Below, one piece after another: positions 32,368-48,631 of a stretch of DNA of 64,000 nt. The translations under genes were made by a program, and so were the position numbers. This stretch comes from an uncultured Clostridia bacterium (GTDB lineage: Bacteria; Bacillota; Clostridia; Christensenellales; Borkfalkiaceae), in contig CALWCE010000003.1 in the NCBI GenBank assembly GCA_944376295.1, positions 10,723 to 74,722 of the forward strand, read 5' to 3'. Each line of letters starts with the position of its first letter. The stretch's first letter is position 1. Below the pieces are notes generated by a model. The model saw nothing but the letters and a program-made list of their open reading frames with translations, had not been told where the DNA came from and did not search any database.

Positions 32368-32502
32368 ATGAAAAACAAAGAAAAACCTGAAATTCTGATC
32401 CCGAAAGGGTATTCGGTGGACGAGATGCTCGATCTGGACGGGGATCTGTGGGATGAAAAGCCCATCGGGGTGGAGGAGGTAAAGATACACTTTGAGCGAT
32501 GA
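32368..32502 (+). CDS. Small acidic ORF (44 aa) preceding ardC
   Basis: This ORF is not in the track. An AGGAGG RBS lies 6 nt before the ATG at 32368. Sequence: MKNKEKPEILIPKGYSVDEMLDLDGDLWDEKPIGVEEVKIHFER. Its stop overlaps the ardC start. Confidence 0.3.
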   Translation: MKNKEKPEILIPKGYSVDEMLDLDGDLWDEKPIGVEEVKIHFER

Positions 32503-34202: not shown

Positions 34203-34526
34203 ATGAAAGACGTCAGGATCAAGCAGGAGCACTACGGCGTCATCAAGGAGATGACGGACAGACAGGCGGGGGAGTTTGTGAAAAAGCTCTGCGCCCGTAT
34301 CTATGAAGGGAAGCCGCTTTTTACAAAGGACGCATATCTGAAGGGTGTGTTCGTCTCGGTGGAACGCGAGCTTGCCGTGTCGCGACAGAACAGCCTCAAC
34401 GCAAGAAAGGGCGCGGAGAAGCGCGCAGAAAGACAGCGCGGGAAACAGCTTGCAGGGCTGGGGTTTGCGCTCGGGAGCGTGTTGGCGGCTGCGCAGGATG
34501 CGGAGAAAGAGGGCGCGGATGAGTGA
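34203..34526 (+). CDS. Hypothetical protein
   Basis: 107 aa with an RBS (AGGAGG) upstream. It is translationally coupled to the MTase (ATGAGTGA overlap). I recognise no family. Confidence 0.45.
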   Translation: MKDVRIKQEHYGVIKEMTDRQAGEFVKKLCARIYEGKPLFTKDAYLKGVFVSVERELAVSRQNSLNARKGAEKRAERQRGKQLAGLGFALGSVLAAAQDAEKEGADE

Positions 34527-35463
34527 ACTTTATTGCGGCGACGCAGCGCAAGTTCTTCAAAGCATTCCCCGGCGAAGCGTGCAAATGTGCGTGACAAGCC
34601 CGCCCTATTACGGACTCAGAGACTATGAGAAGGACGGGCAGATCGGCAGAGAAAGCAGCCCCGAAGCGTATATCGCAAACCTTGTCAAAGTCTTTGACGA
34701 AGTATACCGCGTCCTCATGGACGACGGTACCCTGTGGCTGAATATCGGCGATGCATACGCACATAGACCGTATGCAAACGTCAAGCGAAAAGATCTCATC
34801 GGCATTCCGTGGATGCTCGCTTTTGCCCTTCGTGAGCGCGGTTGGTATCTGCGGTCGGACGTCATCTGGCGCAAGACGAACGCCATGCCGGAGGGCGCGA
34901 AAGACAGACCGTCGAGATGCTACGAGCATATCTTTCTGTTCGCAAAATCGCCGCGCTATTACTTTGACTATCATGCGTTGGAACAGCCCGTTGCGGCGGA
35001 AACCAAAGCGCGGTATCAAAGAAACCGCTCGGAAAGGTCGAAGTATTTTGCGAGCAGCTATGGGCAGGGGCTTGAAAAGCATCTCGGACAAGTGACGGAA
35101 GAGGGCAGGCAGGTTTGCAGGGGAAAGGACGTGTGGGACATCAGCACGAACGCTTACCGCATGGGGGAACACTTTGCCATGTTTCCCGAAAAGCTCGTCG
35201 AGCCTTGCATCCTCGCAGGAAGCAAGGAAGGCGATACAGTGTTAGACCCGTTCTTCGGCAGCGGCACGACGGGTGCGGTCGCGAAACGGCTCGGAAGAAG
35301 TTACATCGGGATAGACCTCAACCCGTGCTATCTTGAAAAGGCGGAGATGCGGATCGCGTTGGTCAAATCAAAACCGTCGCAGGAAAATGCGGCGGAAAAG
35401 CTCCAAAAACCGCAGGAAAATGCGGCAGAGGAGAGTCCGAAACGACCGCGGGAGGTGGGATGA
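34519..35463 (+). CDS. DNA methyltransferase (N6A/N4C, beta-class; no cognate nuclease adjacent)
   Basis: Starts MSELYCGDAAQVL. Motif IV SPPY comes before motif I DPFFGSGTT (order IV...I). The track ORF begins further upstream at 34345. Confidence 0.85.
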   Translation: MSELYCGDAAQVLQSIPRRSVQMCVTSPPYYGLRDYEKDGQIGRESSPEAYIANLVKVFDEVYRVLMDDGTLWLNIGDAYAHRPYANVKRKDLIGIPWMLAFALRERGWYLRSDVIWRKTNAMPEGAKDRPSRCYEHIFLFAKSPRYYFDYHALEQPVAAETKARYQRNRSERSKYFASSYGQGLEKHLGQVTEEGRQVCRGKDVWDISTNAYRMGEHFAMFPEKLVEPCILAGSKEGDTVLDPFFGSGTTGAVAKRLGRSYIGIDLNPCYLEKAEMRIALVKSKPSQENAAEKLQKPQENAAEESPKRPREVG

Positions 35464-35573: not shown

Positions 35574-36035
35574 ATGGCTGAAAACAGAATAGAGGATCAT
35601 CGAAGCAGGCGGTATATTCGCATTACCGATGAGGATAGTTGGCTCATGATCGATGAGATCGCAAGGACAGACTACTATAGTAAGAGCTTCAATAAGATCA
35701 TCAACGACGCGCTCTTTTATGGCTTGCCGATTTTATATGATAAAGTGATCGGAGCGGAAAATATCGCGGAACAGGAAAAGCGAGAGTTGACCGGCGGTGA
35801 AGAGGTGACGGCGGGGAATTTGCGGTTTTACGCACTGCTTGTAAGACTTCTTCGTGAAGTCATCCTCAATGTGACGATCAATAAATCCTTGCTTTCAACG
35901 CTATGCAATGAAAAGGAATGCGAATTGCGCAGAGAGAAAATAACGGCAGAGAAGTTTGCGGGCGGATATTATTCGGATACGCCGGACTATCTTGTGAGGT
36001 ATGAAGCAGAGGAGCTAAAGAAGTTAAGGAAATGA
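35574..36035 (+). CDS. Putative relaxosome accessory protein (MobC/RHH-like)
   Basis: 153 aa from the ATG at 35574 (RRYIRITDEDSWLMIDEIAR...). It lies immediately upstream of the relaxase and overlaps it (ATGA). Confidence 0.4.
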   Translation: MAENRIEDHRSRRYIRITDEDSWLMIDEIARTDYYSKSFNKIINDALFYGLPILYDKVIGAENIAEQEKRELTGGEEVTAGNLRFYALLVRLLREVILNVTINKSLLSTLCNEKECELRREKITAEKFAGGYYSDTPDYLVRYEAEELKKLRK

Positions 36036-37339
36036 GCAATCAACCCATCGTTTTCAATATCCAATACACCCCTTACAAACTGCCCAAAAACGCAACGGCG
36101 GCAGAACGCGAGCAGCACGCATCGGACAGGGCATTCTTCGATATGACGGGAGGGAAGAATATTTTTGACTATATCACGACAGAGGAAAAATGTACAGGCG
36201 GCTATTCGATGTTTGATTACCTACAAAAGAACACGGGCGTATTTAATGAAACGGGGATGCTGCCCGAGCGAGACATTGCAAGCATGAAAGCGCGGCTGAA
36301 GGAGAACCGCGGCGTGATCTGGCACGGCTTCGTGTCGCTTGGGGCGGAAGATTCCTATAAGATCGATTCCCCGGAGAAATGTATCCGCATGGTCAAGCAG
36401 ATTTTTCCGACATTTTTCAGGGATATGAATCTTAAACCCCAGAATGTCGATTTGATGTGCGCATTGCATTTGGATAAGCCTCATCATCTGCATTGTCACT
36501 TTGTTTTTTGGGAAAAAGAGCCGAAGTTCAAAGACGCAAAGAACGGGCAGCTTGTATATCGGCGGCAAGGAAAGGTGCGGAAAGATGCAATCGATAAAAT
36601 GTTTGTACGTCTTGGGTTATTTTTCAGCGATGACAAAGATGTGCTGTATAAAAGTCGTGACGAGGCGATCCGTGACTTAAAAGAACTGCTCGGAGCAAAG
36701 GCGTTTGTCTATAAGCCGGAAGACGTGAAAAAAGAGATTCTCGCGCTTGCGCGGGATCTGCCCAAAAGCGGGCGCGTCACTTACGGCAGCAAGGACATGG
36801 AGCCGTTCCGTGCGCGGGTGGACAAGATCGTGCAGATGCTGCTTTTGACGGACAGGCGTGCGCGTATGGCGGACAGGCGGTTTCACCGCGCGCTTGCAGG
36901 GCGCGAGAGGGAGATCGCGAACATTTGCGGGCAGCCGTTTGCCTATTCCAATAAAAATATCTCGCCCGAAAAAATGGAGAGCGAACTCCCGAAGTACCAC
37001 AATGTGATCGACGGGAAAAATATTCGCATCATCGACGAAATCAAAGCGGACTACAAGCGTCGGCAGGGGAATCTCGTCGTGAATCTTGCAAAATCCATCA
37101 AGCCCGAATGCTACGAGAATAAACGCAAGAGAAAAGTCAACGATCATGCTTTGAAGAGAACGCTTGCTATTTCTAAGAAAAAGATTGGCGGTTCGTTCAA
37201 AGAATTTTTGAATTCGTTCGGGGCAGAGTGCGAGTATATCGAGCGTGACTACTGCCGTAGGTTGCAGGAGATCGAGGAGGAGATGAAGCGCGAAAAAGAA
37301 AAGGATGACGCCGCAGAACACGACGGCGAAACCAAGTAA
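36032..37339 (+). CDS. Conjugative relaxase (MobL/MOBP-like)
   Basis: 435 aa with a histidine triad-like motif HLDKPHHLHCHFVFWE. It sits between the accessory protein and the coupling protein. Confidence 0.6.
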   Translation: MSNQPIVFNIQYTPYKLPKNATAAEREQHASDRAFFDMTGGKNIFDYITTEEKCTGGYSMFDYLQKNTGVFNETGMLPERDIASMKARLKENRGVIWHGFVSLGAEDSYKIDSPEKCIRMVKQIFPTFFRDMNLKPQNVDLMCALHLDKPHHLHCHFVFWEKEPKFKDAKNGQLVYRRQGKVRKDAIDKMFVRLGLFFSDDKDVLYKSRDEAIRDLKELLGAKAFVYKPEDVKKEILALARDLPKSGRVTYGSKDMEPFRARVDKIVQMLLLTDRRARMADRRFHRALAGREREIANICGQPFAYSNKNISPEKMESELPKYHNVIDGKNIRIIDEIKADYKRRQGNLVVNLAKSIKPECYENKRKRKVNDHALKRTLAISKKKIGGSFKEFLNSFGAECEYIERDYCRRLQEIEEEMKREKEKDDAAEHDGETK

Positions 37340-37563: not shown

Positions 37564-39768
37564 ATGAAATTAAAACGACATAGGAAGACCAAATCGTGGA
37601 AGGGTGGGATAGGGGTAGGAGTATTTGTTGCCGTCTGTGTGAGCGTGCTCGTGGCGTTCCTGTTTGCGTTGGCGGGATGTGATCTTGCGGGGATATTCGG
37701 GAACAGGAATTACTGGCTCTCGGTCGGGGTCGCAAACGGGCTGCTGCTCGTCGCGTTCCTTCTGATGTACCGCATCGACGCGCAGAACGTTGCGCTCCAT
37801 GAGAACGATTTGGAAGATACCGAGTGGCTGACGACGAAGAAACTTAAAAAGCTCAAAGAGTTTGCGGTCACGACTTGGGAGAAGATGCCGGAGCACGACG
37901 ACGAGATCGTCATCGGCGCGGAGAAGAAAGGAAAGGAATTGGAGATCATCTCCACGAGCGCCCTGCACGCGCTCATCGTCGGTACGACGGGCAGCGGCAA
38001 AACGACGGGCTTTGTCGATCAGAATATCGCCGTTTTAGGCAAGAGCAAAGGGAAACCGAGCCTTATCATCGCCGACCCCAAAAAGGAGCTGTACGAAAAG
38101 CACGCAAAGCAGTTAGAAAGCGAGGGCTATAAAATCTCCACGCTCGATCTCAGAGAGCCGTATTCGTCGGCACGATGGAACCCCATGCAGGTGCTCATCC
38201 GCCGTATCCGTCAGGTGAAAGAGTTGCAGAACGACCTAAAACAGGAGGACGGCAAATACTACGCCTGCGGCGAGGTGTTCTTATCCCACCGTGACGCCCG
38301 CACAAGGGTGCAGGAGTTAAAGGACGAGATCTTCGAGAACGCGATGGATTTGGTATATACGCTCTGTCCCGTTCAAAACAAAGACCAGCCCACATGGGAA
38401 GAGGGTGCGCGTAACCTCATCTTCGGTCTGGTGCTTGCCTTCTGCGAGGATGTCATTTCGGGCAAGATGGACGAAAAGCAGTTGCAGCTCTTTAACGTGT
38501 ACCATAATGTGACCAAATATTGCTCTGAGGACACGACGGCATTAAAGCAATACCTGCTCGAAGGCAGGGATGAGTTTTCAAAGGTGAGGGGGCTTGTCAA
38601 CACGGTACTCATCACGAGCGACAAGACATTGACGAGCTATCTTTCCGAAGTCAACAGCTATATGCAGCAGCTTTCGGACGACGGCATTCTTTCGATGACG
38701 AGCGAAAATGACATCGACATAGCAAACATGGACGAAAGTCCGAACGCGCTGTTTGTCATCGTGCCGGACGAGCGGTTCACGCGCCACCGATTTGTTACGC
38801 TGTTTCTCACGCAGACCTATAAGGAGCTGGTCGAAAAGGCGAATACCAATCTTCGTAAGAAGCAGACGGATACGGCGATCTTAAAACGCCGCGCCTATTA
38901 CATTTTGGACGAGTTTGCAAATCTTCCGAAGATGGAGAACATCGAAGGCATGGTCACGGTCGGGCGTTCAAGGGGTATCCGGTATCTGTTCGTGTTACAG
39001 AGCTTTTCACAGTTGAATGCCAAGTACGGGAAAGACGTTGCGGATATTCTGAAGTCCAACTGCAATGTAAAGTTGTTTATCGGCTCGGACGATGCGGAGA
39101 CGAGGAAAGAGTTTTCCGAACTTTGCGGGCAGAAGAAGGTCAAGAGCTTTTCGGTGAATACAAGCGCGGAAAACCCTGCGTCCTCGAATACGGGCGCGAG
39201 CAATCAGCCGCTCATAACGCCGGGGATGCTCGAGCGTTTGAACGGCGACGAAAAGGGCGACGCGATTGTTTCGGTGAGAGGCTATGAGCCGATCTGGACG
39301 CGGTTCACATCGTCGTATGAGCTAAAACACATTTATTTTGCGGCGGGTAAGGCGGATATTGGGAAGCGCGAAGCGCGGCTTTTCGATAAGAGCCAATATG
39401 TGTTCGATATTTGCGGCGGAAGTCAGGCAGAGGAAGAAGAAAGACAGCTCATCGCGATCGAGCAGCGGGAGCGGGAAGGAACAGGGAGTGCGCCGAACAT
39501 TGCCGAGCTCGACGCGGCATGGTCAGAGCAGCGCGAAGCGATCCGGAAGAAGGTGAGCTCTGCTGCGGCGGTCCTCGGCGATGAGGACGCTCAGGCGTTG
39601 GTGGAAGCAAAGCTGGAGAATAAGCAGACGCTGATCGCGCTCCTCTTGCAGGAGTACACCGATTTTTCTGTCCGCCAAAAGCTCAACTCGCTCTCGGCAT
39701 ATCTGAGCGAAGCGCTCCCCAAACTGCTCGAATTGCAGGAAAAGGCAAAACAATATCCCGCCGCATGA
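37564..39768 (+). CDS. Type IV coupling protein (VirD4/TraG family)
   Basis: Two N-terminal TM helices, Walker A GTTGSGKT, Walker B YYILDEFANL, and TVGRSRGIRYLFVLQSFSQL. Confidence 0.85.
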   Translation: MKLKRHRKTKSWKGGIGVGVFVAVCVSVLVAFLFALAGCDLAGIFGNRNYWLSVGVANGLLLVAFLLMYRIDAQNVALHENDLEDTEWLTTKKLKKLKEFAVTTWEKMPEHDDEIVIGAEKKGKELEIISTSALHALIVGTTGSGKTTGFVDQNIAVLGKSKGKPSLIIADPKKELYEKHAKQLESEGYKISTLDLREPYSSARWNPMQVLIRRIRQVKELQNDLKQEDGKYYACGEVFLSHRDARTRVQELKDEIFENAMDLVYTLCPVQNKDQPTWEEGARNLIFGLVLAFCEDVISGKMDEKQLQLFNVYHNVTKYCSEDTTALKQYLLEGRDEFSKVRGLVNTVLITSDKTLTSYLSEVNSYMQQLSDDGILSMTSENDIDIANMDESPNALFVIVPDERFTRHRFVTLFLTQTYKELVEKANTNLRKKQTDTAILKRRAYYILDEFANLPKMENIEGMVTVGRSRGIRYLFVLQSFSQLNAKYGKDVADILKSNCNVKLFIGSDDAETRKEFSELCGQKKVKSFSVNTSAENPASSNTGASNQPLITPGMLERLNGDEKGDAIVSVRGYEPIWTRFTSSYELKHIYFAAGKADIGKREARLFDKSQYVFDICGGSQAEEEERQLIAIEQREREGTGSAPNIAELDAAWSEQREAIRKKVSSAAAVLGDEDAQALVEAKLENKQTLIALLLQEYTDFSVRQKLNSLSAYLSEALPKLLELQEKAKQYPAA

Positions 39769-39781: not shown

Positions 39782-40183
39782 TCAGAACCTTTTCAAGAAC
39801 TCGGCGGGGGTCACGATCTCAGGGTGCGTTAAACCGGTATCCGAAAAGTCATCGTCACCCGAAAGAAGGACGTCGACGTTTTCGATGACGGCAGTATACA
39901 AGATAGGGTAGTCTTTGGGATCGCGGATGGAAAACAGAGCTTTTTCGATATGTTCGGGCGTATAGACAAGTTCAAAGGAAAGTTTTTCAAAGAACGTGTC
40001 AAGCTCGCTCAGACGGGAGGGGAATTTCTTCCGTACAACGCGCTTGAGTTCGTCTAAGACATACGAGCAGATGACAAGCTCATGTTTCCGAATGCAGTGC
40101 GACAAAGCTTCCGCCGCACGCCCTTGAGGGAAGAGGATGGCGGAAAATAGGACATTGGTATCGACCATGATTCGCTCGAGCAA
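39782..40183 (-). CDS. PIN-domain toxin (VapC-like)
   Basis: 133 aa with IMVDTNVLFSAIL (first acidic residue of the PIN fold) and a C-terminal LLSGDDDF. It is paired with an upstream AbrB-type gene. Confidence 0.8.
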   Translation of the reverse strand: MLERIMVDTNVLFSAILFPQGRAAEALSHCIRKHELVICSYVLDELKRVVRKKFPSRLSELDTFFEKLSFELVYTPEHIEKALFSIRDPKDYPILYTAVIENVDVLLSGDDDFSDTGLTHPEIVTPAEFLKRF

Positions 40184-40189
40184 TACCTC

Positions 40190-40432
40190 TTATACGCTTT
40201 TCAAAAAAGCTGCGACGTCATCCTCGCTTTGTAGCCCCGCTTCTTCGGCGGCGCCCGCAAAAGCTGACTGCACATCTTTGAGTGCCAGTATGGAAGAGTT
40301 GGCAAGATAGACGCGGTCGTTTTCATCGGTGATAAAAGCGACTTTACAGCCTTCGGTGAGGTGGAGTTTTTTACGCAGTTCTAAGGGGATCGTGACTTGC
40401 CCCTTGGACGAGATCTTGGATACTTCGATCAT
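40190..40432 (-). CDS. AbrB/SpoVT-family antitoxin
   Basis: 80 aa; KISSKGQVTIPLELRKKLHL is the AbrB/MazE swapped-hairpin motif. It ends 7 nt before the PIN gene. Confidence 0.8.
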   Translation of the reverse strand: MIEVSKISSKGQVTIPLELRKKLHLTEGCKVAFITDENDRVYLANSSILALKDVQSAFAGAAEEAGLQSEDDVAAFLKSV

Positions 40433-40548
40433 GCCATATACCTCCGATATGATTTGGTAAAGAAAGTAAAGAAATCTTTACCTTATCTATAGTATATGCT
40501 ACATCGATCGATTTGTCAAGAGGGAAAAAGAAAAAAAGGAGGGATGAT

Positions 40549-41883
40549 TTGAAAAAGTTTTTATTGGCAGGACTGATGGTATGCGGCATGCTCGTGCCCG
40601 TGGCACTGATGGGGTGTGCCGCATCGGAAAGCAATGCGGATCCACCCGCGGCATGGGAAGAGACGGCAGGCGTTGTCCGGAGCGTGGCGGAAGGGGTATC
40701 GCTGCAAGCTGCGGCGCTAGCGAACATATCCTGTGACCATACCTTTGCCGCGGTGCAGACGGTGGAGCCGTCCTGTACGGAGCAGGGTTATACCCTATAC
40801 GCCTGCTCGCAGTGCGGGCAGAGCTATATGGACGACTTTACCCCCGCGAAGGGGCATACGATGCGAGAGATCGTTGTGGAGCCGACTTGCACGCATCAGG
40901 GGTACACGACGCACTTTTGCACCGTCTGCGGCTATGAGTATTCAGACGCTTACAAGGAGGAGCGCGGGCATAAGTATGTTTCGGAAAAGATAGACCCCAC
41001 CTGCACGCAGGCGGGCTGCACGCTGCATACCTGTTCGGTCTGCGGCGACAGCTATCGGGACGATTACCGCGAAGCGCTCGGGCATGCGTATGCCGAAGAG
41101 ACGTTTGCCCCGACCTGCACGAGCGAAGGTTACACGAAACAGACTTGTTCAAGGTGCGGCGACGAGGTAACGATGGACTATGTGCCCGCACTCGGGCATA
41201 CATACACCCAAACGACGATCGCGCCGACGTGCGTGAGCTACGGATATACCGAACACCTCTGCTCCGTCTGCGGGGATCGGTACGTTACCGACTATACCGA
41301 GGCAAAGGGGCATACCTTTCTCGACGTGCTCGTCGAGGCGACGCCCGAGAGCATCGGCTATACGCGGCACATCTGCATCGTCTGCGACTACAGCTATATC
41401 TCCGACTATGTGACGAGCGGCGATACGGGCTATATCGAACCGCCCGGACAAGACCATGCGCATGCGTATGCGTTCTATGTGCAGGATGCGCCCGAGGAGA
41501 AGTACTTCATCGCGCGCTATGTCTGTGACTGCGGTGCAAGCGCCGTGGGCAATGTGTCGGTCATGGCGGTCGGCGAAGACGGCGCGGCGGTACAACTTTC
41601 TGTCAACGAATACGGGCAGGTGGACTATTCCCGCCTTTCGGGAAGCTATACGGTGCGCATCACGGACGGAGCGGGGGAACTTCTCAAAGAGTTTTCCGTG
41701 ACGGCGGAAGGGAAATCGCCCGAGGACAAGCCGCAGGAGCCGCCCGAAGAGACGGAACAGGGAAAAGAGGGGCGCAGTACGGGGACGACGGTCCTGCTGC
41801 TGTTCATCCTCATACTACTCGCCGCAGGCGGTGCCGCGGCATGGCTTCTTATCAGAAGGAAGAAAAAGAAAGATCAAAAGTAA
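40549..41883 (+). CDS. Cys3His-repeat surface lipoprotein with C-terminal TM anchor
   Basis: TTG 40549 lies 6 nt after a GGAGG RBS and gives (M)KKFLLAGLMVCGMLVPVALMGC (lipobox). There are five full and one degenerate ~38-aa repeats CTxxGYTxxxCxxCG..Y..x9-11..GH. The C-terminal TM is LLLFILILLAAGGAAAWLLI followed by RRKKKK. Confidence 0.7.
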   Translation: MKKFLLAGLMVCGMLVPVALMGCAASESNADPPAAWEETAGVVRSVAEGVSLQAAALANISCDHTFAAVQTVEPSCTEQGYTLYACSQCGQSYMDDFTPAKGHTMREIVVEPTCTHQGYTTHFCTVCGYEYSDAYKEERGHKYVSEKIDPTCTQAGCTLHTCSVCGDSYRDDYREALGHAYAEETFAPTCTSEGYTKQTCSRCGDEVTMDYVPALGHTYTQTTIAPTCVSYGYTEHLCSVCGDRYVTDYTEAKGHTFLDVLVEATPESIGYTRHICIVCDYSYISDYVTSGDTGYIEPPGQDHAHAYAFYVQDAPEEKYFIARYVCDCGASAVGNVSVMAVGEDGAAVQLSVNEYGQVDYSRLSGSYTVRITDGAGELLKEFSVTAEGKSPEDKPQEPPEETEQGKEGRSTGTTVLLLFILILLAAGGAAAWLLIRRKKKKDQK

Positions 41884-41899
41884 AGGGAGGATATAAGAT

Positions 41900-42196
41900 A
41901 TGAATTTTAACTTACTTACGGAAACCGGACTGGACAGTAATCTTGCCGAGATCGTGGCAAAATTGCAGAGCCTGATGGATAGCTTCTGGGTCTATATCGT
42001 TATCGCGCTCGCGGCAGTCGTCGTTATCTGGGGCGCGTATATCGGCATCAAGATCGCCATTGCACATAGGAACGAAGAGAAGATCAACGCCAAAGACATG
42101 GTGAAGCAGCTCATCATCGGCATCGTCATTATCTTCGTCGTGGCGATGGGCGCACCGCTTCTCATCAACGGCTTGTCCGCTTGGGTCGGCGCGTAA
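41900..42196 (+). CDS. VirB2/TrbC-like pilin-type protein (two-TM hairpin)
   Basis: 98 aa with two hydrophobic helices separated by HRNEEKINAKD. A strong RBS is present, and the gene is the first of the T4SS block. Confidence 0.6.
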   Translation: MNFNLLTETGLDSNLAEIVAKLQSLMDSFWVYIVIALAAVVVIWGAYIGIKIAIAHRNEEKINAKDMVKQLIIGIVIIFVVAMGAPLLINGLSAWVGA

Positions 42197-42214
42197 AAAC
42201 GGAAGTCTGAACAG

Positions 42215-42241
42215 AAAGGCGGCGCGTTGTTTGCCGCCTTT
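42215..42241 (+). terminator. Intra-operon terminator/attenuator after the pilin-like gene
   Basis: AAAGGCGGC-9 nt loop-GCCGCCTTT followed by CATTTTC. Confidence 0.4.
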
Positions 42242-42267
42242 CATTTTCAGATAATGGAGGAGGTTAA

Positions 42268-43488
42268 ATGCTGATATTTTTACAGGAGATAGGCTTACAG
42301 CTTTTTCTATGGCTGTTGCAGCTTGTGGACGGGCTGATGGACTTATTTTCCGCCATGACGGGTATTGCCGCGGTCAACTACCACGGGCAGCAAGTCAATC
42401 TCATCGAGTTCATCGTCGGCGACTCCGCCATCGGCACCGTCTTTTGGTGTATCTTTATCACGGCTGTGGGGCTCACCTGTATCTTTGCGATCGCGGGGCT
42501 CATCAAGAATATGATCTCCGGCAACCGCGGCGTGGCGACGGTCGTGGGGAAGTTCTTTCTCGCGCTTTTGGGAACGATGGCAATGCTGGCGGTCGTTATC
42601 TTGGGTATCCTCATCGCCAACGGCTCGCTGCAACTTCTGGCGCGCATCTTTCAAGTGGAGAATACGACCAAGCTCTCGAACGCCATTTTCAATGCCTGCG
42701 TCGGTGATTGGCTGAACGGGTATTCGGCGGGGGATGTGGACGTGACGTCGCTCACGGTGCGCGAGATCCTGGGTGGTTACGATACGGCGCTGTTCGGGAT
42801 CTGGCCTACGTCCTGGAAGGGGAACGGCATGGTCGACCCGAATACGTTCCTGTATCTTCCCTCGCTCGTAGCGGGCATCGCGCTCTGCGTGGCGCTCGTG
42901 ATCGCCGTTCTCAATCTCGCAAAGCGGGTATATGAGATCGTTTTTACTTACTTCATGATGCCAATCGCCATGTCGACCTTGCCGCTTGACGATGGGGCGC
43001 GGTTCAAAAACTGGCGGGAGCTCTTCGTCTCTAAACTCATCCTCGCCTATGGCGCGGTGTTCGCGGTCAATATCTTTGCGCTCGTTCTGCCGCTCATCAA
43101 TGCGGTGCATCTGGACGGTGTCAACGGCTTCGGAAACGCCATGTTCACGATCTTCATGATCGTGGGCGGCGCGATGCTCATCCCCGCAGGGCAGACGTTG
43201 TTTGCCCGTCTGTTCGGGCAGGGCGACGATATGCGTGCCGGCGGCGGATGGCTCAGAAGCGCGTTCTACGGCGGACGCATTGCAAGCGCCATGACGGTAG
43301 GGCTTGCCGCGAAAGGCATCAAGGCAATCGCTTCCCGCAAAAAGGGAGACAGCGGCAACGGAAACAGCGGCGATTCGAGCGACGGTTCCGACGATTCGGG
43401 CGACAAATATACGGAGGACAGCGCCGAGAGCACGGACGCCGCAGACGAGAGCACTGCGGCGCAAACGCAAGGAGGAGAAAGCAGTTGA
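42268..43488 (+). CDS. Polytopic membrane protein, VirB6/TrbL-like
   Basis: 406 aa with at least 6 TM helices and an acidic Ser/Gly/Asp-rich tail. It sits between the pilin-like and VirB4-like genes. Confidence 0.55.
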   Translation: MLIFLQEIGLQLFLWLLQLVDGLMDLFSAMTGIAAVNYHGQQVNLIEFIVGDSAIGTVFWCIFITAVGLTCIFAIAGLIKNMISGNRGVATVVGKFFLALLGTMAMLAVVILGILIANGSLQLLARIFQVENTTKLSNAIFNACVGDWLNGYSAGDVDVTSLTVREILGGYDTALFGIWPTSWKGNGMVDPNTFLYLPSLVAGIALCVALVIAVLNLAKRVYEIVFTYFMMPIAMSTLPLDDGARFKNWRELFVSKLILAYGAVFAVNIFALVLPLINAVHLDGVNGFGNAMFTIFMIVGGAMLIPAGQTLFARLFGQGDDMRAGGGWLRSAFYGGRIASAMTVGLAAKGIKAIASRKKGDSGNGNSGDSSDGSDDSGDKYTEDSAESTDAADESTAAQTQGGESS

Positions 43489-46115
43489 GAATTATCCCTA
43501 AAAAAATTAAAGTGAAGAATACGGTATGGAAGTGCTATTCCATGACGGATGTGATTGTGGCGCTGTTTGTGTTTGCGCTCATCTTCATCGCAGTCACGGC
43601 TGGGAACTGGGCGCTTGCGATCATTATGGGACTTATAGCGGTCGTCATGTTCATGCCCATGCCGGACGGCATTTTCTATACCTGCATCTTTGAAAACGTA
43701 AAATTTCTGTTCGCTAAAAAGCGATATACGGCGGATGCAAAGAACCCGAAAGAGAATATTGACACGCTCATCGGGCTGAAAGAGATCAAGACAAACGGCT
43801 TGCTCGCATACAGCGGCGGAATGTTCGGCAGAGTCATCAAGGTGGGGCAAAAGAACTTCGGCATTGAGGACGTGGTGCAGCAGAACATCGACATCGGCTA
43901 CATAGCAAACGCCTTAAAAATTCTCGATGCCAACCAAAGCGCGGACATCATCAAGATCGACCGCCCTGTAAATCTGGACGGTTTCTCGGAGGAACTGTTT
44001 GCTCGTCTTTCTGCATTGCGGGAAGAAGAATCGCAGACGCGGGAGATCCGACAGGACATTTTGCAGGAACGCATCGACCGTATCGACAAGCTCAACAATA
44101 TCCGCAAGCAGTACTTGTCCGACTATTATATTATAGTGTATGGCAGGAACGAACTTGATTTAGAGAGCGCGGCGATCAATATCGCGGGCGAGGTCGGAAA
44201 GAGCGGACTGTCTACAAAACTTCTCGGTATGCGCGAGGCGGCGGTGTTCTTAAAATACAGTTTTTCTCGCAATTTTGACGAGAGAGAGGAAAAGGACATT
44301 GCCGATGAGGATTTGCTCGCGTGGGTAAAGCCGAAAGAAGTGGTATTCCACAGCAATAGGTTCGTCATCGACGGAACGGAAGCGAGCGTGCTTACGGTCG
44401 CGGACTATCCACTGCGCGTCAAAAACGCATGGGGAGCAAAGCTGTTCAATATTCCCAACACGAAGGTCGTGATGCACGTTCGACCCGTGGATAAGTACAA
44501 GGCGATCCGCCGTATCGACAAGTGCATCGGCGAGATGGCGACCAAGCAGATCGTGGCGGAAAAAGCGAGCGAAGCGAACAGCGCGGAAACGCATCAGGAA
44601 ACGATGAACGCGCTTTTGGATAGTTTGCAGACGGAAAACGAAAGCCTTTTGGACGTTACCTTGACCGTTACTGCCTATAACTATCTCAAAAATGAGAATT
44701 ACAAAAAGGCTGTGCGTAGAGCTTTGCTCACGGAAAACTTCAAACCGTCCACGCTGTACGGCTTGCAGATCGAAGGGTTTAAGACTGCGGCGGTATCGCC
44801 CGTAAGCACGCTTAAAAACCATGAGCGAGGTATCAACAGTTCAAGCCTCGCGGCGGTGTTCCCGTTTGTGAGGACTTGTGTTCTCGATGATGGGGGTATC
44901 CTTCTCGGCGAAAATAAGACGAACGGCTATCCGTTTATTCTCAATTTGTGGAAGCGCGGCAATCTTTATCAAAATAGCAACGCCATGATCATCGGCAAGT
45001 CGGGCTCGGGCAAATCGTATTTTTTGAAAACGCTTATCGCCAACGAATGGGCGAACGGCACGAGAGTCATCGTGTTAGACCCCGAAGCCGAATACCTCAC
45101 GCTCACCCGCAATTTGAGCGGCAACATCATTGATGTGGGCAACGCAAAGGAGGGGCGCATCAATCCGTTCCATATCTATAAGATCCTCACGGAGGACGGC
45201 ACGCCTGCCGACCCGAAGGTCACGTTCAATACGCACCTCAAGATGCTTGAATCGTTTTTCAAGATCGTGCTTGCGGATGCGCCCGTGGACGTCATTGAAC
45301 TCATCAATAACCTTGTGGTGGAAACATACGAGAAAATGGGTATCACGGAAAATACCGACTGCTCGGCGTTCCCTGCGGACTACTTTCCGCTGTTTTCGGA
45401 CTTGCTCGAAACGTTGCAGAGTAAGAACAGGGAAAGCATAGATGAGCTTACCAAGAGGGATATGCGCACGGCGGAGCTGTATCTCAAAAAGTTTGTGAGC
45501 GGGCGGTATTCGGACATCTGGAACGCGCCGTCCACGTTAAAGACGGACGCAGACCTTATAGATTTCGATTTCCAGAGCCTGTTTGCGAATAAGAACAATA
45601 CGGTGGCGAACGCGCAGATGCTGCTCATTTTCCGATTCATCGAGCAGGAAGTCATCAACGCGAGAGAGAAGAACAAGGGCGGAGCAAACCTTCATACGCT
45701 CATCATTGCAGACGAAGCGCACCTCTACATAGACCCTAAATTCCCCATCGCATTGGACTTCTTCTATTCGATGTCAAAGCGTATCCGCAAGTACAACGGC
45801 TCGTTCGTTCCCGCCACGCAGAATATCGCCGATTGGAATGCGAACGAAGAACTGCGCGGCAAGACCTCGGCGATCATCAAGAACAGTCAGTATAGCTTTA
45901 TCTTCAAACTGTCCGCGCCCGACATGAAAGACGTTTTGGATATTTACAAGGCGGGCGACAGCTTCAACGACGAGGAGCAGCGCATGATCATCTCGGCGGT
46001 TACGGGACAGACGTTCTTTGTGGGAAGCACGGAGCTTCGCAACTGCATTCTCGTCAAGGCGGGGGACTATACGCAGTCGCTCTTTGAGGAGAGAAAGGAG
46101 GAGGAAACGAATTGA
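43485..46115 (+). CDS. VirB4-family conjugation ATPase with N-terminal VirB3-like TM segment
   Basis: The probable TTG start at 43485 lies 8 nt after a GGAGGAG RBS and overlaps the upstream stop. The N-terminal TM pair is VIVALFVFALIFIAV..LAIIMGLIAVVMF. Walker A GKSGSGKS, Walker B LIIADEAHLY. Confidence 0.85.
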   Translation: MRIIPKKIKVKNTVWKCYSMTDVIVALFVFALIFIAVTAGNWALAIIMGLIAVVMFMPMPDGIFYTCIFENVKFLFAKKRYTADAKNPKENIDTLIGLKEIKTNGLLAYSGGMFGRVIKVGQKNFGIEDVVQQNIDIGYIANALKILDANQSADIIKIDRPVNLDGFSEELFARLSALREEESQTREIRQDILQERIDRIDKLNNIRKQYLSDYYIIVYGRNELDLESAAINIAGEVGKSGLSTKLLGMREAAVFLKYSFSRNFDEREEKDIADEDLLAWVKPKEVVFHSNRFVIDGTEASVLTVADYPLRVKNAWGAKLFNIPNTKVVMHVRPVDKYKAIRRIDKCIGEMATKQIVAEKASEANSAETHQETMNALLDSLQTENESLLDVTLTVTAYNYLKNENYKKAVRRALLTENFKPSTLYGLQIEGFKTAAVSPVSTLKNHERGINSSSLAAVFPFVRTCVLDDGGILLGENKTNGYPFILNLWKRGNLYQNSNAMIIGKSGSGKSYFLKTLIANEWANGTRVIVLDPEAEYLTLTRNLSGNIIDVGNAKEGRINPFHIYKILTEDGTPADPKVTFNTHLKMLESFFKIVLADAPVDVIELINNLVVETYEKMGITENTDCSAFPADYFPLFSDLLETLQSKNRESIDELTKRDMRTAELYLKKFVSGRYSDIWNAPSTLKTDADLIDFDFQSLFANKNNTVANAQMLLIFRFIEQEVINAREKNKGGANLHTLIIADEAHLYIDPKFPIALDFFYSMSKRIRKYNGSFVPATQNIADWNANEELRGKTSAIIKNSQYSFIFKLSAPDMKDVLDIYKAGDSFNDEEQRMIISAVTGQTFFVGSTELRNCILVKAGDYTQSLFEERKEEETN

Positions 46116-48505
46116 GAGGTAAAATAAAAAGAACAACGTGGCTTGTGAGCTTTGCGGCAATGCTCTGTTTGCTGTTGCCGTTTTGGTTTCCGAGAGGGGA
46201 AACAGTATCCGCCGCTACCACCCCGAGTTACACCGTAGCCTTTGACTACACGCATACATATACCTACGGTTCGGGCGCCGGTACGCGCAAAGAGACATCG
46301 GGCGACAACAATGTTTATTCTGCCGTTGTGCAGAGTGGTTCGAATACGACGGCGACCATCTCCGTTATTCTGTATGGGAGTGGGGCATCGGGGAATGCGT
46401 ATCTTTCCAATGGCGGCACGATCAAGTCGGATACGGTGAATATCCAGATCTCAGGCTATAACGAGCGTAGGATCACGGTGACTGACGCATCGGGAAGAAC
46501 AGTGGGGAGCGGCAGCTCTTCCGTACATCTGAGTGGTCTTTCCGACGGAAGTTATTCGGTGTCTGTACAGTTTGGCTTTTTTGCCTGGACGATCAATTCG
46601 CGTGCGGGCGCCAGTGTTACGACGACGGGTTCCTTTAGCTTTACCGTTGCGGCGGAAGAACACGTCCATCAGTACGGTAAGCGCGTTGTGGCTCCCACTT
46701 GCACAGCAAGCGGTTATACCCAATATACCTGTAAGACTTGCGGGTACTCTTATACCGGGGATCGTACGTCGGCTTTAGGGCATAATTATACATCCACAAC
46801 GAGCGGAGCGACTTGCACGTCAGGCGGTACCGTGCTTTATACCTGTACCCGCTGCGGGGACAGCTATACGAAGACGACTTCCGCGCTCGGACATGATTAT
46901 GAGAGCATGCTGACTGCTGCCACTTGTACGGAAGAGGGGTATATCAAATATGTCTGTACTCGCTGCGGGGATAGCTATACCGAAGATATTCCCGCAACGG
47001 GGCATAGTTATCAGAGCAAGACGGTCTCTCCGACCTGCACATCGGGCGGTTATAGCCGCCATACCTGTACCCGCTGCGGAGACAGCTATACGACTAACCG
47101 CACGCAAGCGCTCGGGCATAGCTACACGGTATCGTCCGAGCGCGATCCGACCTGTACGAGCGGGTCGGTGACGGTCTATCGCTGTACGCGCTGCGGCAGC
47201 ACTTACTCGGACGAGGATTCCGACGCTCTGGGTCACAGCTATGACGCGGATGTCGTCAATCCCACCTGCACGGCGGGCGGCTATACGGTGTTCTCGTGCA
47301 GGCGATGCAGCTACAGCTATACAGGCAATGCGACGGCGGCTTTAGGGCATAGCTATAAAGCTGCGACGACGCCCTCTTCCTGTACGACGGAAGGATATAC
47401 GACCTACGAATGCATCCGCTGCGGCGCAAGTTATACCGACAGTCCCACGCAGGCGACAGGGCATAGCTATGTCGCCGAGATCGTGTCATCCACCTGTACG
47501 GAGCGGGGCTATACCGTCTATACTTGCAGCAAGTGCGGCGACAGCTATCGCACCAATGAAACGCAGCCGCTGGGGCATAGCTATGTCATCTCCACGGAAG
47601 GGGCGACCTGTACGGAGAGCGGCGTTTCCGTATATACCTGCACCCGCTGCGGGTCGAGCTACGAGGGCTGGCTGACGGCACCGCTCGGGCATAACTATGT
47701 AGCGGAGCAGAGACCCGCAGGCTGTACGGAGGAGGGCGGCACCGTCTACACCTGTACGCGATGCGGAGACGGTTATAACGGAGAGCCGACGCCGCCTCTC
47801 GGCCATGCGTATATCTCCAAAGCCGTTGCCGCGACGTGTGAAGAAGGGGGATATGTCCTCCACACTTGCATCCGCTGCGGGGACAGCTATCAAGACAACG
47901 AGACGCAGCTGCTCGGGCATAATTTCGTGACGGAGGAACGCCCGCCTTCCTGCACCGAGGGCAGCCGCACCGTCTATATCTGTCAGGTATGCGGCTTTGA
48001 AAAGACGGAGGAGACGGGGACTTACCCGACGGGGCACGACTATACTTCCACCGTGCTTCGCGCGGCGACCTGTACGCAGGCGGGGGAGCGGAAATTTGTC
48101 TGCGACAAGTGCGGAGAAGAATATATCGAGACCATCCCGGCGACGGGCCACACTTATGCGATCACCGATTCAATCTCTCAGAACGGCGTGACTGTCCGTA
48201 CCTATACCTGTTCGGTCTGCGGCGATACTTTCGCGCAGGAGCTCGGCGATCAGTACGAGGAAGTGGCGTCTTACATCGAATATCTGTTCGAGCAATACCG
48301 CCCGTATATGATTTGGGTCTTTCTCGCCACGGCGGGCGTATGGAGCATCGTGATGGGGGTGTGCTTCGCCATTGCCCAAAAACATGAGGAGAAGGAGAAA
48401 GCCAAGCGCATGATCTTCAACTACCTCATCGGGCTTGTCGTCATCTTCTGTATCCTCGTCGCCGCCCCGCTCCTCGTCCGCGGCATCGCTGCACTTGTAA
48501 CGTAA
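46112..48505 (+). CDS. Secreted Cys3His-repeat protein (13 full + 1 degenerate repeat) ending in a VirB2-like two-TM pilin module
   Basis: The TTG start overlaps the VirB4 stop (TTGA). There is a signal peptide, a ~150-aa beta-rich domain, and repeats at ~46664-48240. The last ~70 aa align ungapped with the 98-aa pilin-like protein (25/69 identical). Confidence 0.75.
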   Translation: MRGKIKRTTWLVSFAAMLCLLLPFWFPRGETVSAATTPSYTVAFDYTHTYTYGSGAGTRKETSGDNNVYSAVVQSGSNTTATISVILYGSGASGNAYLSNGGTIKSDTVNIQISGYNERRITVTDASGRTVGSGSSSVHLSGLSDGSYSVSVQFGFFAWTINSRAGASVTTTGSFSFTVAAEEHVHQYGKRVVAPTCTASGYTQYTCKTCGYSYTGDRTSALGHNYTSTTSGATCTSGGTVLYTCTRCGDSYTKTTSALGHDYESMLTAATCTEEGYIKYVCTRCGDSYTEDIPATGHSYQSKTVSPTCTSGGYSRHTCTRCGDSYTTNRTQALGHSYTVSSERDPTCTSGSVTVYRCTRCGSTYSDEDSDALGHSYDADVVNPTCTAGGYTVFSCRRCSYSYTGNATAALGHSYKAATTPSSCTTEGYTTYECIRCGASYTDSPTQATGHSYVAEIVSSTCTERGYTVYTCSKCGDSYRTNETQPLGHSYVISTEGATCTESGVSVYTCTRCGSSYEGWLTAPLGHNYVAEQRPAGCTEEGGTVYTCTRCGDGYNGEPTPPLGHAYISKAVAATCEEGGYVLHTCIRCGDSYQDNETQLLGHNFVTEERPPSCTEGSRTVYICQVCGFEKTEETGTYPTGHDYTSTVLRAATCTQAGERKFVCDKCGEEYIETIPATGHTYAITDSISQNGVTVRTYTCSVCGDTFAQELGDQYEEVASYIEYLFEQYRPYMIWVFLATAGVWSIVMGVCFAIAQKHEEKEKAKRMIFNYLIGLVVIFCILVAAPLLVRGIAALVT

Positions 48506-48631
48506 AAAAAATGGAACTTACCTTTGCTCAGCCCGTAAAAATTTTTTCGGAAAAATGCTCCGAACCCCTTGACAAACGGGAGAAAATGTGATATTCGTAT
48601 TAACACGAAGCAAGAAAAAGGAGGCGCAGTC

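Follow-up and report, generated by a model that had tools for sequence, protein, structure and literature searches.

Tandem Cys3His repeats predicted to form metal-stapled stalks in two T4SS-linked surface proteins of a Clostridia ICE family

The window analyzed here is a stretch of 64,000 nucleotides from an uncultured Clostridia bacterium of the Borkfalkiaceae (GenBank assembly GCA_944376295.1, contig CALWCE010000003.1, positions 10,723 to 74,722 of the forward strand). Two of its genes, referred to here as p1 and p2, encode proteins that share a short Cys/His repeat and, as the preliminary description of this DNA had observed, bracket T4SS genes, here a pilin-like gene, a VirB6-like gene and virB4 (Table 1). 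Both proteins have an N-terminal signal sequence and C-terminal membrane segment(s), and the C-terminal tether claimed for each was recovered as a single TM helix followed by RRKKKKDQK in p1 and as two TM helices in p2. The product of 42268..43488 had no match in Pfam and was assigned through its place in the operon and a 39%-identical paralogue that occupies the same position in a second element (contig C8), the layout of which is the same as that of the element described here.

Table 1. Location of the genes and protein features discussed in the text, in positions of the window.
Feature	Position	Strand	Basis
VirD4-type coupling protein (context)	37564..39768	+	PF02534, 169.5 bits
p1, 444-aa exported protein	40549..41883	+	ORF; TTG start at 40549
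p1 lipobox L-M-G-C, end of signal peptide	40606..40617	+	motif location
p1 array N-terminal cap C-D-H-T-F, with extra Cys	40732..40746	+	homologue conservation, cap counts
p1 array, 6 units	40735..41421	+	repeat alignment, AF2 strands
p1 C-terminal all-beta domain	41452..41715	+	AF2: 7 strands, pLDDT about 85-93
p1 TM anchor and Lys/Arg-rich cytoplasmic tail	41776..41883	+	26 hydrophobic residues, then RRKKKKDQK
98-aa two-TM pilin-like protein	41900..42196	+	PF18895 T4SS_pilin, 22.1 bits (cut-off 26.6)
Polytopic membrane protein, VirB6-like	42268..43488	+	position and paralogy
VirB4-type ATPase, two N-terminal TM helices	43533..46115	+	PF19044, PF01935, PF12846
p2, 797 aa	46112..48505	+	ORF; repeat HMM; start overlaps virB4 stop by 4 nt
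p2 N-terminal head, distal end	46214..46663	+	weak beta-sandwich-type Pfam matches (Por_Secre_tail, 14.4 bits)
p2 array cap H-V-H-Q-Y	46661-46675	+	motif location
p2 array, 14 units	46664..48259	+	HMM, 14 units found
p2 C-terminal VirB2-like pilin module	48254..48502	+	PF18895, 26.1 bits (cut-off 26.6); BLAST to the 98-aa pilin-like protein

The TTG start of p1 is preceded by AGGAGG 6 nt upstream, and the protein is composed, in order, of a signal peptide with a lipobox, the six-unit array, a beta-sandwich domain, a Pro/Glu-rich linker and the TM anchor. The lipobox form [LAV]-[AV]-[GA]-C is kept only in the closest homologues, with distant ones having a plain signal peptide; the TM anchor and basic tail are kept in homologues. 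The beta domain opens with an isolated quartet of H-x-H (41455-41469) and C-x-C (41524-41532), of which one His and both Cys are invariant in the p1 family. Comparison of p1 with PF14283 (CD1107-like/DUF4366) returned 19.3 bits against a cut-off of 26 and covered profile positions 105-158 at the TM end only, and this identity was not accepted; the DUF4366 literature concerns Tn1549-type ICEs, a family other than that of the present ICE.

In p2, which is probably translationally coupled to virB4, a signal peptide is followed by a beta head of ~150 aa, the 14-unit array and a pilin-like module of two TM helices separated by a Lys/Glu-rich cytoplasmic loop. Similarity to the head was detectable by BLAST in only 32 of 56 p2-like proteins. 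The C-terminus is 33% identical to the 98-aa pilin-like protein of the same element (BLAST E = 1.5e-13), and we know of no described pilin with an ectodomain of ~700 aa.

The coordinates and unit counts given earlier for the repeat held on recheck: p1 carries six units (five full and one without the first Cys) and p2 carries 14 (13 full and one without the first Cys), with a period of 37-40 aa. The best phase was G-H-x-Y-x7-8-C-T-x2-G-x5-C-x2-C-G for a unit of ~38 aa; in an alignment of the 20 p1 and p2 units His2, Cys23 and Cys26 are invariant, and Gly1, Cys13, Gly17 and Gly27 are each at least 90% conserved. The motif first proposed for the unit thus described a real repeat but began it at the first Cys. 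Since a His-x-[YF] with a Cys/His two residues earlier lies upstream of that Cys in both proteins (“CDHTF” in p1, “HVHQY” in p2), the natural unit begins at G-H. A search of the genome’s own ORFs with an HMM of the unit returned p1 at E = 6.5e-95 and p2 at E = 2.9e-204, values which rule out chance as the source of the repeat. Pairwise amino acid identity between units is 27-57%, and Tandem Repeats Finder detected no tandem array at the DNA level across 40400-48600.

AlphaFold2 (AF2) modeling of p1 units 1-4 gave three beta-strands of 6-7 residues per unit and no helix (pLDDT 94.2, pTM 0.56), with pLDDT maintained at 93-97 across the unit junctions, and a model of the full p1 ectodomain (pLDDT 86) contained 18 strands and no helix over the six units. 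Whole-model rmsd of the p1 models against globular targets was 29-55 Å, which is compatible with a very elongated model. Foldseek searches of the four-unit model against the PDB returned no fold match (best E = 0.034, TM ≤ 0.17); the whole ectodomain returned only weak matches to multi-domain beta surface proteins (Sap S-layer and GhpA fibre, TM ≤ 0.21), which, for these predicted models, we read as the absence of a fold match. The unit would accordingly be described as a small extracellular structural module of three antiparallel beta-strands, and tandem units may stack into a stiff rod.

By the AF2 strand order, the lone Cys and the CxxC knuckle of one unit lie at opposite ends of a seven-residue strand, and the four ligands of a putative site appear to be split between neighbors: unit i would supply its lone Cys, from the beta1-beta2 loop, and unit i+1 its opening His and the CxxC knuckle at its beta2-beta3 turn. 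The proposed junction geometry is based on sequence logic, on the order of the strands and on what has been published about an IgA protease (below). In 250 homologues we scored the final unit that the HMM detected in each array and found the lone Cys present with His and knuckle downstream in 212 cases and absent with nothing downstream in 133, against 9 cases in which it was present with nothing downstream and 2 in which it was absent with both downstream. The resulting odds ratio is ~1,600, for a sample of related sequences biased toward high scores, so that p-values overstate independence. The last unit would not need a lone Cys, and in 32/32 p1 homologues it is absent there, with a Pro in its place in p1. 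The first site may be completed by the Cys/His cap just ahead of the first His: a Cys or His within 5 residues before the first His was found at 205 of 300 array starts and in 74 of 3,398 internal units, with about a third of array starts having no obvious cap, and both residues of the p1 cap, Cys and His, reach at least 90% conservation in 32 homologues.

These data bear directly on the “beads on a string” arrangement of the preliminary description, in which each unit would be a self-contained zinc knuckle (Cys, CxxC and the next His) joined to its neighbors by flexible linkers. Three Cys and one His per period are compatible with either phase, and SEC-SAXS showed flexible hinges between larger domains of the IgA protease (PMC12237041; PMC12415215). 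The terminal units, however, keep His and CxxC and lose the lone Cys together with the following His (133 versus 9 cases in the counts above), the His and extra cap at array starts would be unneeded, the lone Cys and knuckle are separated by the length of a strand, model confidence does not drop at the junctions and extends over four units, and the published IgA-protease models put the sites at subdomain interfaces (PMC12237041; PMC12415215). We consider independent beads improbable; array-end statistics and strand topology place the quartets across junctions in a continuous rod. With the ligands split across neighbors in this way, the array therefore reads as a metal-stapled rod, and we think it likely that three-stranded units form a stiff rod with Zn(Cys3His) at the junctions and that this stalk was recruited into two proteins of the ICE mating apparatus.

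The metal was considered from the ligands themselves. Each unit contributes three Cys and one His, Cys and His swap at the cap and at the lone-Cys position, and the Y-x-C-x-x-C-G-x-x-Y stretch resembles rubredoxin and C2H2 knuckles among PDB sequence matches. Zn(Cys3His) is the most likely occupant of the predicted tetrahedral site, and metal binding itself is what we infer from this ligand set; the earlier proposal of extracytoplasmic Cys3His mini-modules common to the two T4SS-bracketing proteins is supported, with the metal type predicted. Covalent Cys links such as disulfides, with no metal and with the His in another role, would suit extracytoplasmic proteins in that disulfides are common there in aerobes, and AF2 does not model metals. 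This alternative is very improbable in our estimation, as the number of Cys per unit is odd, the His is invariant, Cys and His interchange at two positions, the knuckle is like those of rubredoxin and C2H2 fingers, the hosts are strict gut anaerobes (going by the record titles of VirB4-related loci), and the IgA protease has no seen or predicted disulfides though it contains 24 Cys (PMC12237041; PMC12415215).

It is scarcely credible that the Cys3His centers instead bind iron in a rubredoxin-like manner or store metal, so that the array would be a redox relay or metal buffer and not a stalk. Rubredoxin knuckles are among the best local PDB matches and the number of sites per protein is large (as many as 80 units), but the centers would lie ~2.5-3.5 nm apart, too distant for efficient electron hopping, a spacing estimated from the AF2 strand length and the ~110 Å reported per three IgA-protease subdomains. 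A link to redox genes is absent, the heads attached to arrays are enzymes and adhesins, and Cys3His and Cys2His2 sets are typical of structural Zn sites. A haem wire or multihaem c-type cytochrome was rejected because neither p1 nor p2 contains a CxxCH haem-attachment motif.

The preliminary description knew of no function or structure assigned to such repeats, and it remains the case that no structure has been solved; two 2025 papers on the M64 IgA protease of Thomasclavelia ramosa, though, predict a Zn-linked rod spacer (PMC12237041; PMC12415215). The ZBD1 and ZBD2 regions (CTD2/CTD4) of that enzyme are described there as three-stranded up-and-down beta-sheet subdomains of ~34-40 residues, with putative Zn sites at the subdomain interfaces and ~110 Å for three subdomains. 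By SAXS, CTD2 is compatible with a fully extended rod only, and the regions are called a rod-shaped periscope or spacer; they were not resolved in the map, and their Zn sites are predictions (PMC12237041; PMC12415215). A broader, two-unit profile (A4) searched against PDB sequences matched 9qa6_A, “IgA protease”, weakly (E = 0.0036, 20.5 bits) over three stretches of 11-13 bits each that match the motifs, namely an H-x-H-capped first unit (ATCTTAG...YYTCDGC) and two units without the lone Cys. The one-unit (A1) and four-unit (A2) profiles did not list the IgA protease, and together with phmmer of p2 they returned only knuckle-level C2H2-finger and rubredoxin matches among PDB sequences.

By motif and predicted strand content, the p1/p2 repeat appears to be the module type of ZBD1/ZBD2, with a sequence link that is weak in score. 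Common to both are three strands per unit, interface quartets (here from sequence logic) and a place between anchor and functional domain. The IgA protease differs in having only 2-3 divergent subdomains per domain, mostly His2Cys2, among Ig-like domains, and its ZBD was treated as the unique fold of one enzyme, whereas the family here comprises tens of thousands of clusters and p1 and p2 hold long, regular, canonical Cys3His arrays (6 and 14 units) that are T4SS-linked and in one case pilin-fused. That one IgA-cutting enzyme is the only prior notice of the repeat module (PMC12237041; PMC12415215).

Among better-known systems, RTX adhesins (MpIBP RII, SiiE BIg) and cadherins likewise use tandem beta-repeats stiffened by linker metal to project an adhesive head from the cell (PMC7493085; PMC5380327). 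Their repeats are ~100-aa Ig-like sandwiches with exchangeable Ca2+ held by acidic residues; here each unit is a single sheet of 38 aa whose Cys/His ligands are of the kind that holds Zn tightly. RTX adhesins are T1SS substrates of Gram-negative bacteria and cadherins belong to animal cells, in contrast to the Gram-positive anaerobes considered here. The G5-E rods of the periscope proteins SasG and Aap are alike in being single-layer beta-sheet repeat rods linked to zinc and in varying in repeat number among close relatives (4-15 in p2-like proteins). In Aap, Zn bridges two molecules through surface His/Asp/Glu, unlike the intra-rod sites predicted here, and canonical periscope arrays are near-identical in DNA, unlike the divergent units of p1 and p2. 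Zinc ribbons, rubredoxin and C2H2 fingers have Y-x-C-x-x-C-G-x-x-[YF] at a beta-turn, and C2H2 fingers are also tandem small metal modules. A classical zinc ribbon was rejected because it needs two knuckles per domain and the unit has one CxxC, a single Cys and a single His. The C2H2 finger was rejected because the AF2 models have no helix and the PDB matches cover only T-G-x-x-x-Y-x-C-x-x-C-G-x-x-F; these fingers have a helix with two His and bind nucleic acid inside the cell, whereas p1 and p2 are exported. PrgB of pCF10 and VirB2 pilins share with p1 and p2 their encoding in transfer operons, surface exposure and candidacy for donor-recipient contact, and the p2 anchor is PF18895-like, but a sequence relation to PrgB and an LPXTG motif are absent. 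Gram-positive T4SS classes are said to use adhesins instead of pili.

With the VirB4 ATPase as query, 68 related loci were recovered. In 56 of 57 related loci, virB4 is directly followed at its 3' end by a repeat ORF (52 with a pilin-like C-terminus), and 31 of 34 related ICE loci have a p1 homologue upstream of virB4, so that p1- and p2-type genes are backbone genes of this ICE family. Unit number is 4-15 in the 56 p2-like proteins, ranging from 10 to 14 even where VirB4 is 89-96% identical, and 5-10 in p1-like proteins. Conservation among p1 units goes beyond the ligands and holds position by position (e.g., TCT..GYTTHFC..CG.EY.D in unit 2), a pattern in the alignments that suggests a specific partner.

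In a further alternative, the array would be no passive stalk but a multivalent binder of cell-wall polymers, glycans or a partner protein, which for p1 could be p2 or the recipient surface. Short repeats in tandem are a usual feature of modules that bind the wall, the p1 array is the distal part of a protein that has no other head, its units are conserved as just described, and the IgA-protease authors left extra functions open (PMC12237041; PMC12415215). Outside p1, though, the array nearly always lies between an anchor and an evident functional head, unit number varies from 4 to 15 among close relatives, and in 5,474 units the surface residues vary once ligand and core positions are set aside. 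We judge a binding array to be unlikely. Against the simple stalk reading, p1 departs from the anchor-stalk-head order, with the array distal and with close relatives having both a lipobox and a C-terminal TM helix.

The unit profile matched 39,488 protein clusters, 5,032 of them at E ≤ 1e-30, in agreement with the earlier statement that similar strings occur in other gut Firmicutes surface proteins: gut and rumen Clostridia have the repeat in surface-protein clusters that number in the tens of thousands. Also as anticipated, no curated family exists, with Pfam and NCBIfam lacking a model for the repeat and no solved structure covering it. The suggested enrichment on conjugative elements stood in part, in that the two ICE genes are backbone genes, but the family overall is not tied to T4SSs: 26 of 38 repeat-bearing genomes of the order have no VirB4 relative, and we read the repeat as a stalk module of general use. 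Of the 17 repeat proteins in this genome, at least 14 have the array next to a membrane anchor, either a lipobox at the N-terminus or a TM or pilin module at the C-terminus, with an LRR, beta-helix or enzyme as distal head. Homologues carry S8, CAP, GH20, F5/8C, LRR_5, cohesin and dockerin domains. The repeat was also present in two records of annotated plasmids, both “hypothetical protein”, and in four unannotated metagenomic phage records.

Proteins with the repeat are at present labeled “hypothetical protein” or, in error, RNA polymerase subunit RpoP. PF05495 zf-CHY scored 35.0 bits on p2 (cut-off 31.3), summed over three partial stretches (positions 16-65 of 68), which we read as a compositional Cys/His-knuckle match; p1 had no match and a close homologue, P0001, reached 30.7 bits, under the cut-off. 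CHY fingers are intracellular, and zf-CHY was not accepted for the repeat. PF24893 DUF7743 was not accepted either (homologue P0047, 26.8 against a cut-off of 27; absent from the genome of the window), and DUF1660 and Zn_ribbon were considered and not accepted. Literature searches on repeats of zinc-ribbon or Cys-rich type in T4SS proteins or surface proteins of Firmicutes turned up nothing of relevance.

Taken as a stalk, the array would act as a “periscope” of roughly 2.5-3.5 nm per unit, or ~15-20 nm in p1 and ~35-50 nm in p2, lengths that, like the rigidity of the rod, we infer, and would keep a functional part off the membrane and carry it through the Gram-positive wall. In p2, a variable beta head would sit on a rod of 4-15 units whose root in the membrane is a copy of the element’s own VirB2-like pilin module, most likely making p2 a surface or adhesin arm with which the T4SS spans the wall. 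In p1, a rod of 5-10 units and a beta-sandwich would be displayed on a flexible Pro/Glu linker.

A bolder reading is that the rods are the Gram-positive counterpart of a conjugative pilus, zinc-stapled arms that grip recipients in zinc-switched mating. In such a system the VirB2-like module of p2 would let it assemble together with the 98-aa pilin-like protein at the VirB6/VirB4 channel, and arm length would be tunable and allow reach through the wall. Because a metal ion would be needed at every junction, gut zinc (e.g., as limited by host calprotectin) would switch mating on or off. We hold this combination of features to be decidedly unlikely; if it were true, the zinc switch would also govern the reach of thousands of surface enzymes on the same stalk.

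For the stalk reading preferred here, the long canonical arrays and the two-unit site rule give a clear design for first tests of structure, metal and mechanics, and recognition of the repeat would improve annotation over “hypothetical protein” and RpoP labels. In this ICE family there is a specific candidate for the means by which a Gram-positive T4SS may span the wall and contact its partner: a rod, variable in length, that has a pilin-like module as its root and is coupled to virB4. Should the metal sites prove real, limitation of zinc by the host might influence gene transfer as well as the way surface enzymes are displayed.

A pattern scan of the two exported proteins p1 (444 amino acids) and p2 (797 amino acids) recovered five and 13 full units, respectively, with a period of 37-40 residues, together with one extra unit in each that keeps the CxxC knuckle and lacks the first cysteine (the lone Cys). 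When cut at G-H, the 20 units aligned nearly without gaps, with His2, Cys23 and Cys26 invariant and Gly1, Cys13, Gly17 and Gly27 at least 90% conserved (consensus: GHxYxxxxxxPTCTxxGYTxYTCxRCGDSYxxxxTxxL). A unit HMM searched against the ORFs of the same genome retrieved p1 (E=6.5e-95) and p2 (E=2.9e-204), so that scan, alignment and HMM all bear out the unit counts of the preliminary description. Its p1 start also stands, a TTG at 40549 six bases past AGGAGG. The arrays are old, because no DNA-level tandem repeat was found in either and the units are only 27-57% identical to one another. Both proteins carry a signal peptide (in p1 with the lipobox LMGC); p1 ends in a single TM helix followed by RRKKKKDQK and p2 in two TM helices flanking a Lys/Glu-rich loop, and both are extracytoplasmic. 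Some homologues (P0121, P0128, P0135 and others) have a knuckle shorter by one residue (C-x-C-G) inside otherwise regular arrays, as well as short terminal caps (G-H-x5-7-C-x-x-C-G), and other proteins of the window's genome alternate the 38-residue type with shorter ones (e.g. GHTPGPEATCTQAQVCxxC).

AF2 modeled p1 units 1-4 from four-unit windows of p1 and p2 aligned with one another (pLDDT 94.2; pTM 0.56), giving exactly three strands (6-7 residues) in each unit and zero helices. The whole p1 ectodomain (31 homologues; pLDDT 86) was modeled with 18 strands over the six units and, beyond a linker of 18 residues that is poorly defined, a C-terminal domain of seven strands. Foldseek searches of the models against the PDB did not find a fold match; whole-model alignments gave rmsd values of 29-55 Å, so the model is strongly elongated. 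Within a modeled unit, the lone Cys precedes and the CxxC follows the 7-residue strand 2, at opposite ends, so by this model they cannot bind a common ion. The strand 2-3 hairpin is flanked by the lone Cys of unit i and the opening His of unit i+1, and the strand 1-2 hairpin of unit i+1 by its opening His and CxxC, positions at which all four ligand residues would meet at the unit junction.

Array ends were scored at the last HMM-detected unit in 250 homologues. The lone Cys was present with His and knuckle downstream in 212 cases and absent with neither downstream in 133, against nine in which it was present with neither and two in which it was absent with both (odds ratio ~1,600); sequences in these and the array-start counts are related and hence not independent, and the effect is very large. 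Many arrays terminate in a short G-H-x5-7-C-x-x-C-G, a source of His and knuckle only. At array starts, a Cys or His (the cap) occurs no more than five residues ahead of the first His in 205 of 300 cases (position -2 in 132, -4 in 54), compared with 74 of 3,398 internal units. Across the p1 family (32 homologues), the cap Cys of 'C-x-H-x-Y' is at least 90% conserved and the lone Cys is missing from the last unit in 32/32; the window's p1 ('CDHTF') and p2 ('HVHQY') obey the same end-capping rule. Because topology, array ends and the p1 family agree, the predicted metal sites are common to adjacent units, and the array would be a rod rather than the beads on a string initially proposed. The earlier metal-module reading is otherwise broadly right on sequence grounds: metal is favored over disulfides by the three Cys and one His per unit, by the Cys/His swaps, seen both in the cap and where the lone Cys sits, by the resemblance of the knuckle to those of known metal sites, and by the anaerobic hosts. 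The CxxCH motif was not present, which was likewise reckoned in favor of metal.

p1 stands apart from the other array proteins: its array occupies the distal side of a Pro/Glu-rich linker whose length varies greatly. Conservation of its units is position-specific and extends past the ligand residues, which hints at a specific partner. Window 41452-41535, where the p1 C-terminal domain starts, has an isolated H-x-H...C-x-C quartet with one His and both Cys invariant across 32 homologues; it resembles the putative junction site in a free-standing form that caps itself. This domain is duplicated in some relatives (loci L055, L064-L066).

Neither Pfam-A nor NCBIfam holds a model for the unit. The zf-CHY model scored 35.0 bits on p2 (cut-off: 31.3), summed over three partial stretches, did not match p1, and fell under the cut-off in a p2 relative at 90% identity; DUF7743 gave a near-match in one homologue and no match within the window's genome. 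Against PDB sequences, the matches of p2 and the unit profiles were confined to the local knuckle, Y-x-C-x-x-C-G-x-x-[YF], as it occurs in rubredoxins and C2H2 fingers. Annotated plasmid records label such proteins 'hypothetical protein', and one metagenome source uses 'RNA polymerase subunit RPC12/RpoP', a mislabel owing to the knuckle. A word-indexed search yielded at least 7,242 significant sequences among 8,000 scored candidates. An exhaustive profile search of 1.84 billion representatives yielded 39,488 proteins at E ≤ 1e-3 (a tier that may take in eukaryotic C2H2 arrays, since the profile touches these too), 19,428 at 1e-10 and 5,032 at 1e-30, with maxima of 80 units and 7,583 residues. 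Domains beside arrays include subtilase, CAP, GH20, F5/8-type C, LRR_5, Listeria-Bacteroides repeat, cohesin, dockerin and further extracellular domains. The unit occurs in 19 ORFs of the window's genome (2.03 Mb), in 39/151 genomes and 28/96 genera of its order (E ≤ 1e-5 per unit), and in at least 8/401 of an even sample of the phylum (1e-6); the titles of related records indicate Christensenellales along with other gut or rumen Clostridia.

The p1 and p2 region lies inside an integrative conjugative element (ICE), with the host's maltodextrin locus left of ~13.5 kb in the window. The virB4 stop and p2 start share a four-base overlap.

Coordinates of genes in the ICE region of the window
Feature	Position	Strand
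TnpV (left copy)	14477-14830	
'Polyvalent' ICE protein, 3,566 aa	18971-29671	
ArdC-like protein	32492-34180	
N6/N4 DNA methylase	34345-35463	
MobL-type relaxase	36032-37339	
VirD4-type coupling protein	37564-39768	+
PIN/AbrB-type pair	39782-40432	minus
p1	40549-41883	+
Pilin-like protein, 98 aa, two-TM	41900-42196	+
VirB6-like protein, polytopic	42268-43488	+
VirB4	43533-46115	+
p2	46112-48505	+
TnpV (right copy)	48569-48985	
Tyrosine integrase	49864-51288	

The 3,566-residue protein combines MutS domain I, an Eco57I-type methylase, an SNF2/ResIII helicase, DUF3848 and the NrS-1 polymerase HBD. Between virD4 and p1, a PIN-domain toxin gene and a small AbrB/SpoVT-like antitoxin-type gene run opposite to the transfer genes. 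Two hydrophobic helices (MTDVIVALFVFALIFIAV...GLIAVVMFMPMP) open VirB4 (window 43533-43700) and give the impression of a fused VirB3-like segment; neither a VirB1-type wall hydrolase nor a VirB8-like gene was recognised among the ORFs scanned. The two TnpV proteins are 93% identical and lie near opposite element ends, the left immediately right of the maltodextrin locus and the right immediately before the integrase; a third follows a p2 paralogue on contig C11 of the same genome. The copies are possible markers of tandem or composite elements.

Co-occurrence with VirB4, a check suggested in the preliminary description, does not extend to the repeat family overall, which is not tied to T4SS, since 26/38 repeat-bearing genomes of the order lack a VirB4 relative; the repeat is also rare among plasmid and phage records. 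It does hold within the ICE family. In loci recovered with VirB4 at 56-96% identity, a repeat ORF (4-15 units) adjoins the virB4 3' end in 56/57 testable cases, with a pilin-like C-terminus in 52/56, and a p1-like gene (5-10 units, mostly 7) lies 1.5-5.5 kb upstream in 31/34; p1 and p2 are thus backbone genes of this family. The p2-like proteins vary from 10 to 14 units even at VirB4 89-96% identity and the p2 head is recognisable in only 32/56, the picture being one of a variable head on a variable-length stalk. Six loci with VirB4 67-74% identical (L044, L045, L051, L053, L063, L069) come from MAGs labelled Bacilli or even Spirochaetia, reflecting either wide host range or binning errors. 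A second element in the same genome, on contig C8, carries a diverged conjugation module (C8:75892-93138) in the window's gene order: MobL, VirD4, pilin, a 2,143-residue protein (22 units), VirB6 and VirB4, then a 344-residue protein (four units and pilin module) and a 167-residue protein (two units and TM helix). In the 2,143-residue protein, the units are followed by a long helical repeat region of acidic character and by a TM anchor; its gene, between those for the pilin-like protein and VirB6, sits near p1's place in the window. A third p2 paralogue is located at a contig end, and about one third of the genome's repeat-bearing ORFs thus lie on ICEs.

In 2025, Gomis-Ruth's group used AI models to describe ZBD1 and ZBD2 (CTD2 and CTD4) in the IgA protease of T. 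ramosa. In these, each subdomain spans ~34-56 residues and forms a three-stranded up-and-down sheet, and ZBD1, with three subdomains, is ~110 Å long; the map resolved residues 32-876 only. The second paper found isolated CTD2 to be a fully extended rod by SAXS and proposed that the tail projects the protease off the cell; neither recognised the large family or its tandem arrays (PMC12237041; PMC12415215). A two-unit profile built from 40 diverse homologues was tested on the 9qa6_A SEQRES ('IgA protease') and matched three stretches of it (E=0.0036), one of which (EEHTHNLTLVAAKAATCTTAGNSAYYTCDGC) has an H-x-H cap, lone Cys and knuckle, the remaining two being units without the lone Cys. We conclude that the repeat in the window represents this module type, with its predicted metal sites, in the canonical, long-array form. 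The preliminary description knew of no assigned function or structure; the curated databases agree, but the module type is already known, having been noticed in 2025 in one enzyme. Four points are new: the canonical form is a tandem array, array ends follow a capping rule, the family is large and uncurated, and two proteins of an ICE mating apparatus carry the repeat as a fixed feature.

Of 17 clear cases in the window's genome, at least 14 have the array directly against the membrane anchor, be the anchor N- or C-terminal, which gives a stalk layout in three forms: N-terminal lipobox, array, then LRR or enzyme head; beta-helix or other head, array, then C-terminal TM helix; and array followed by pilin module. 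The array is predicted to act as a rigid stalk holding a head off the membrane, and its reach would be ~35-50 nm for p2 and ~15-20 nm for p1, assuming 2.5-3.5 nm per unit from AF2 strand length and the published ~110 Å per three subdomains. Since Gram-positive T4SS classes reportedly lack VirB2 pilins and depend on adhesins, a stalked head with a pilin-like root would be a plausible contact arm.
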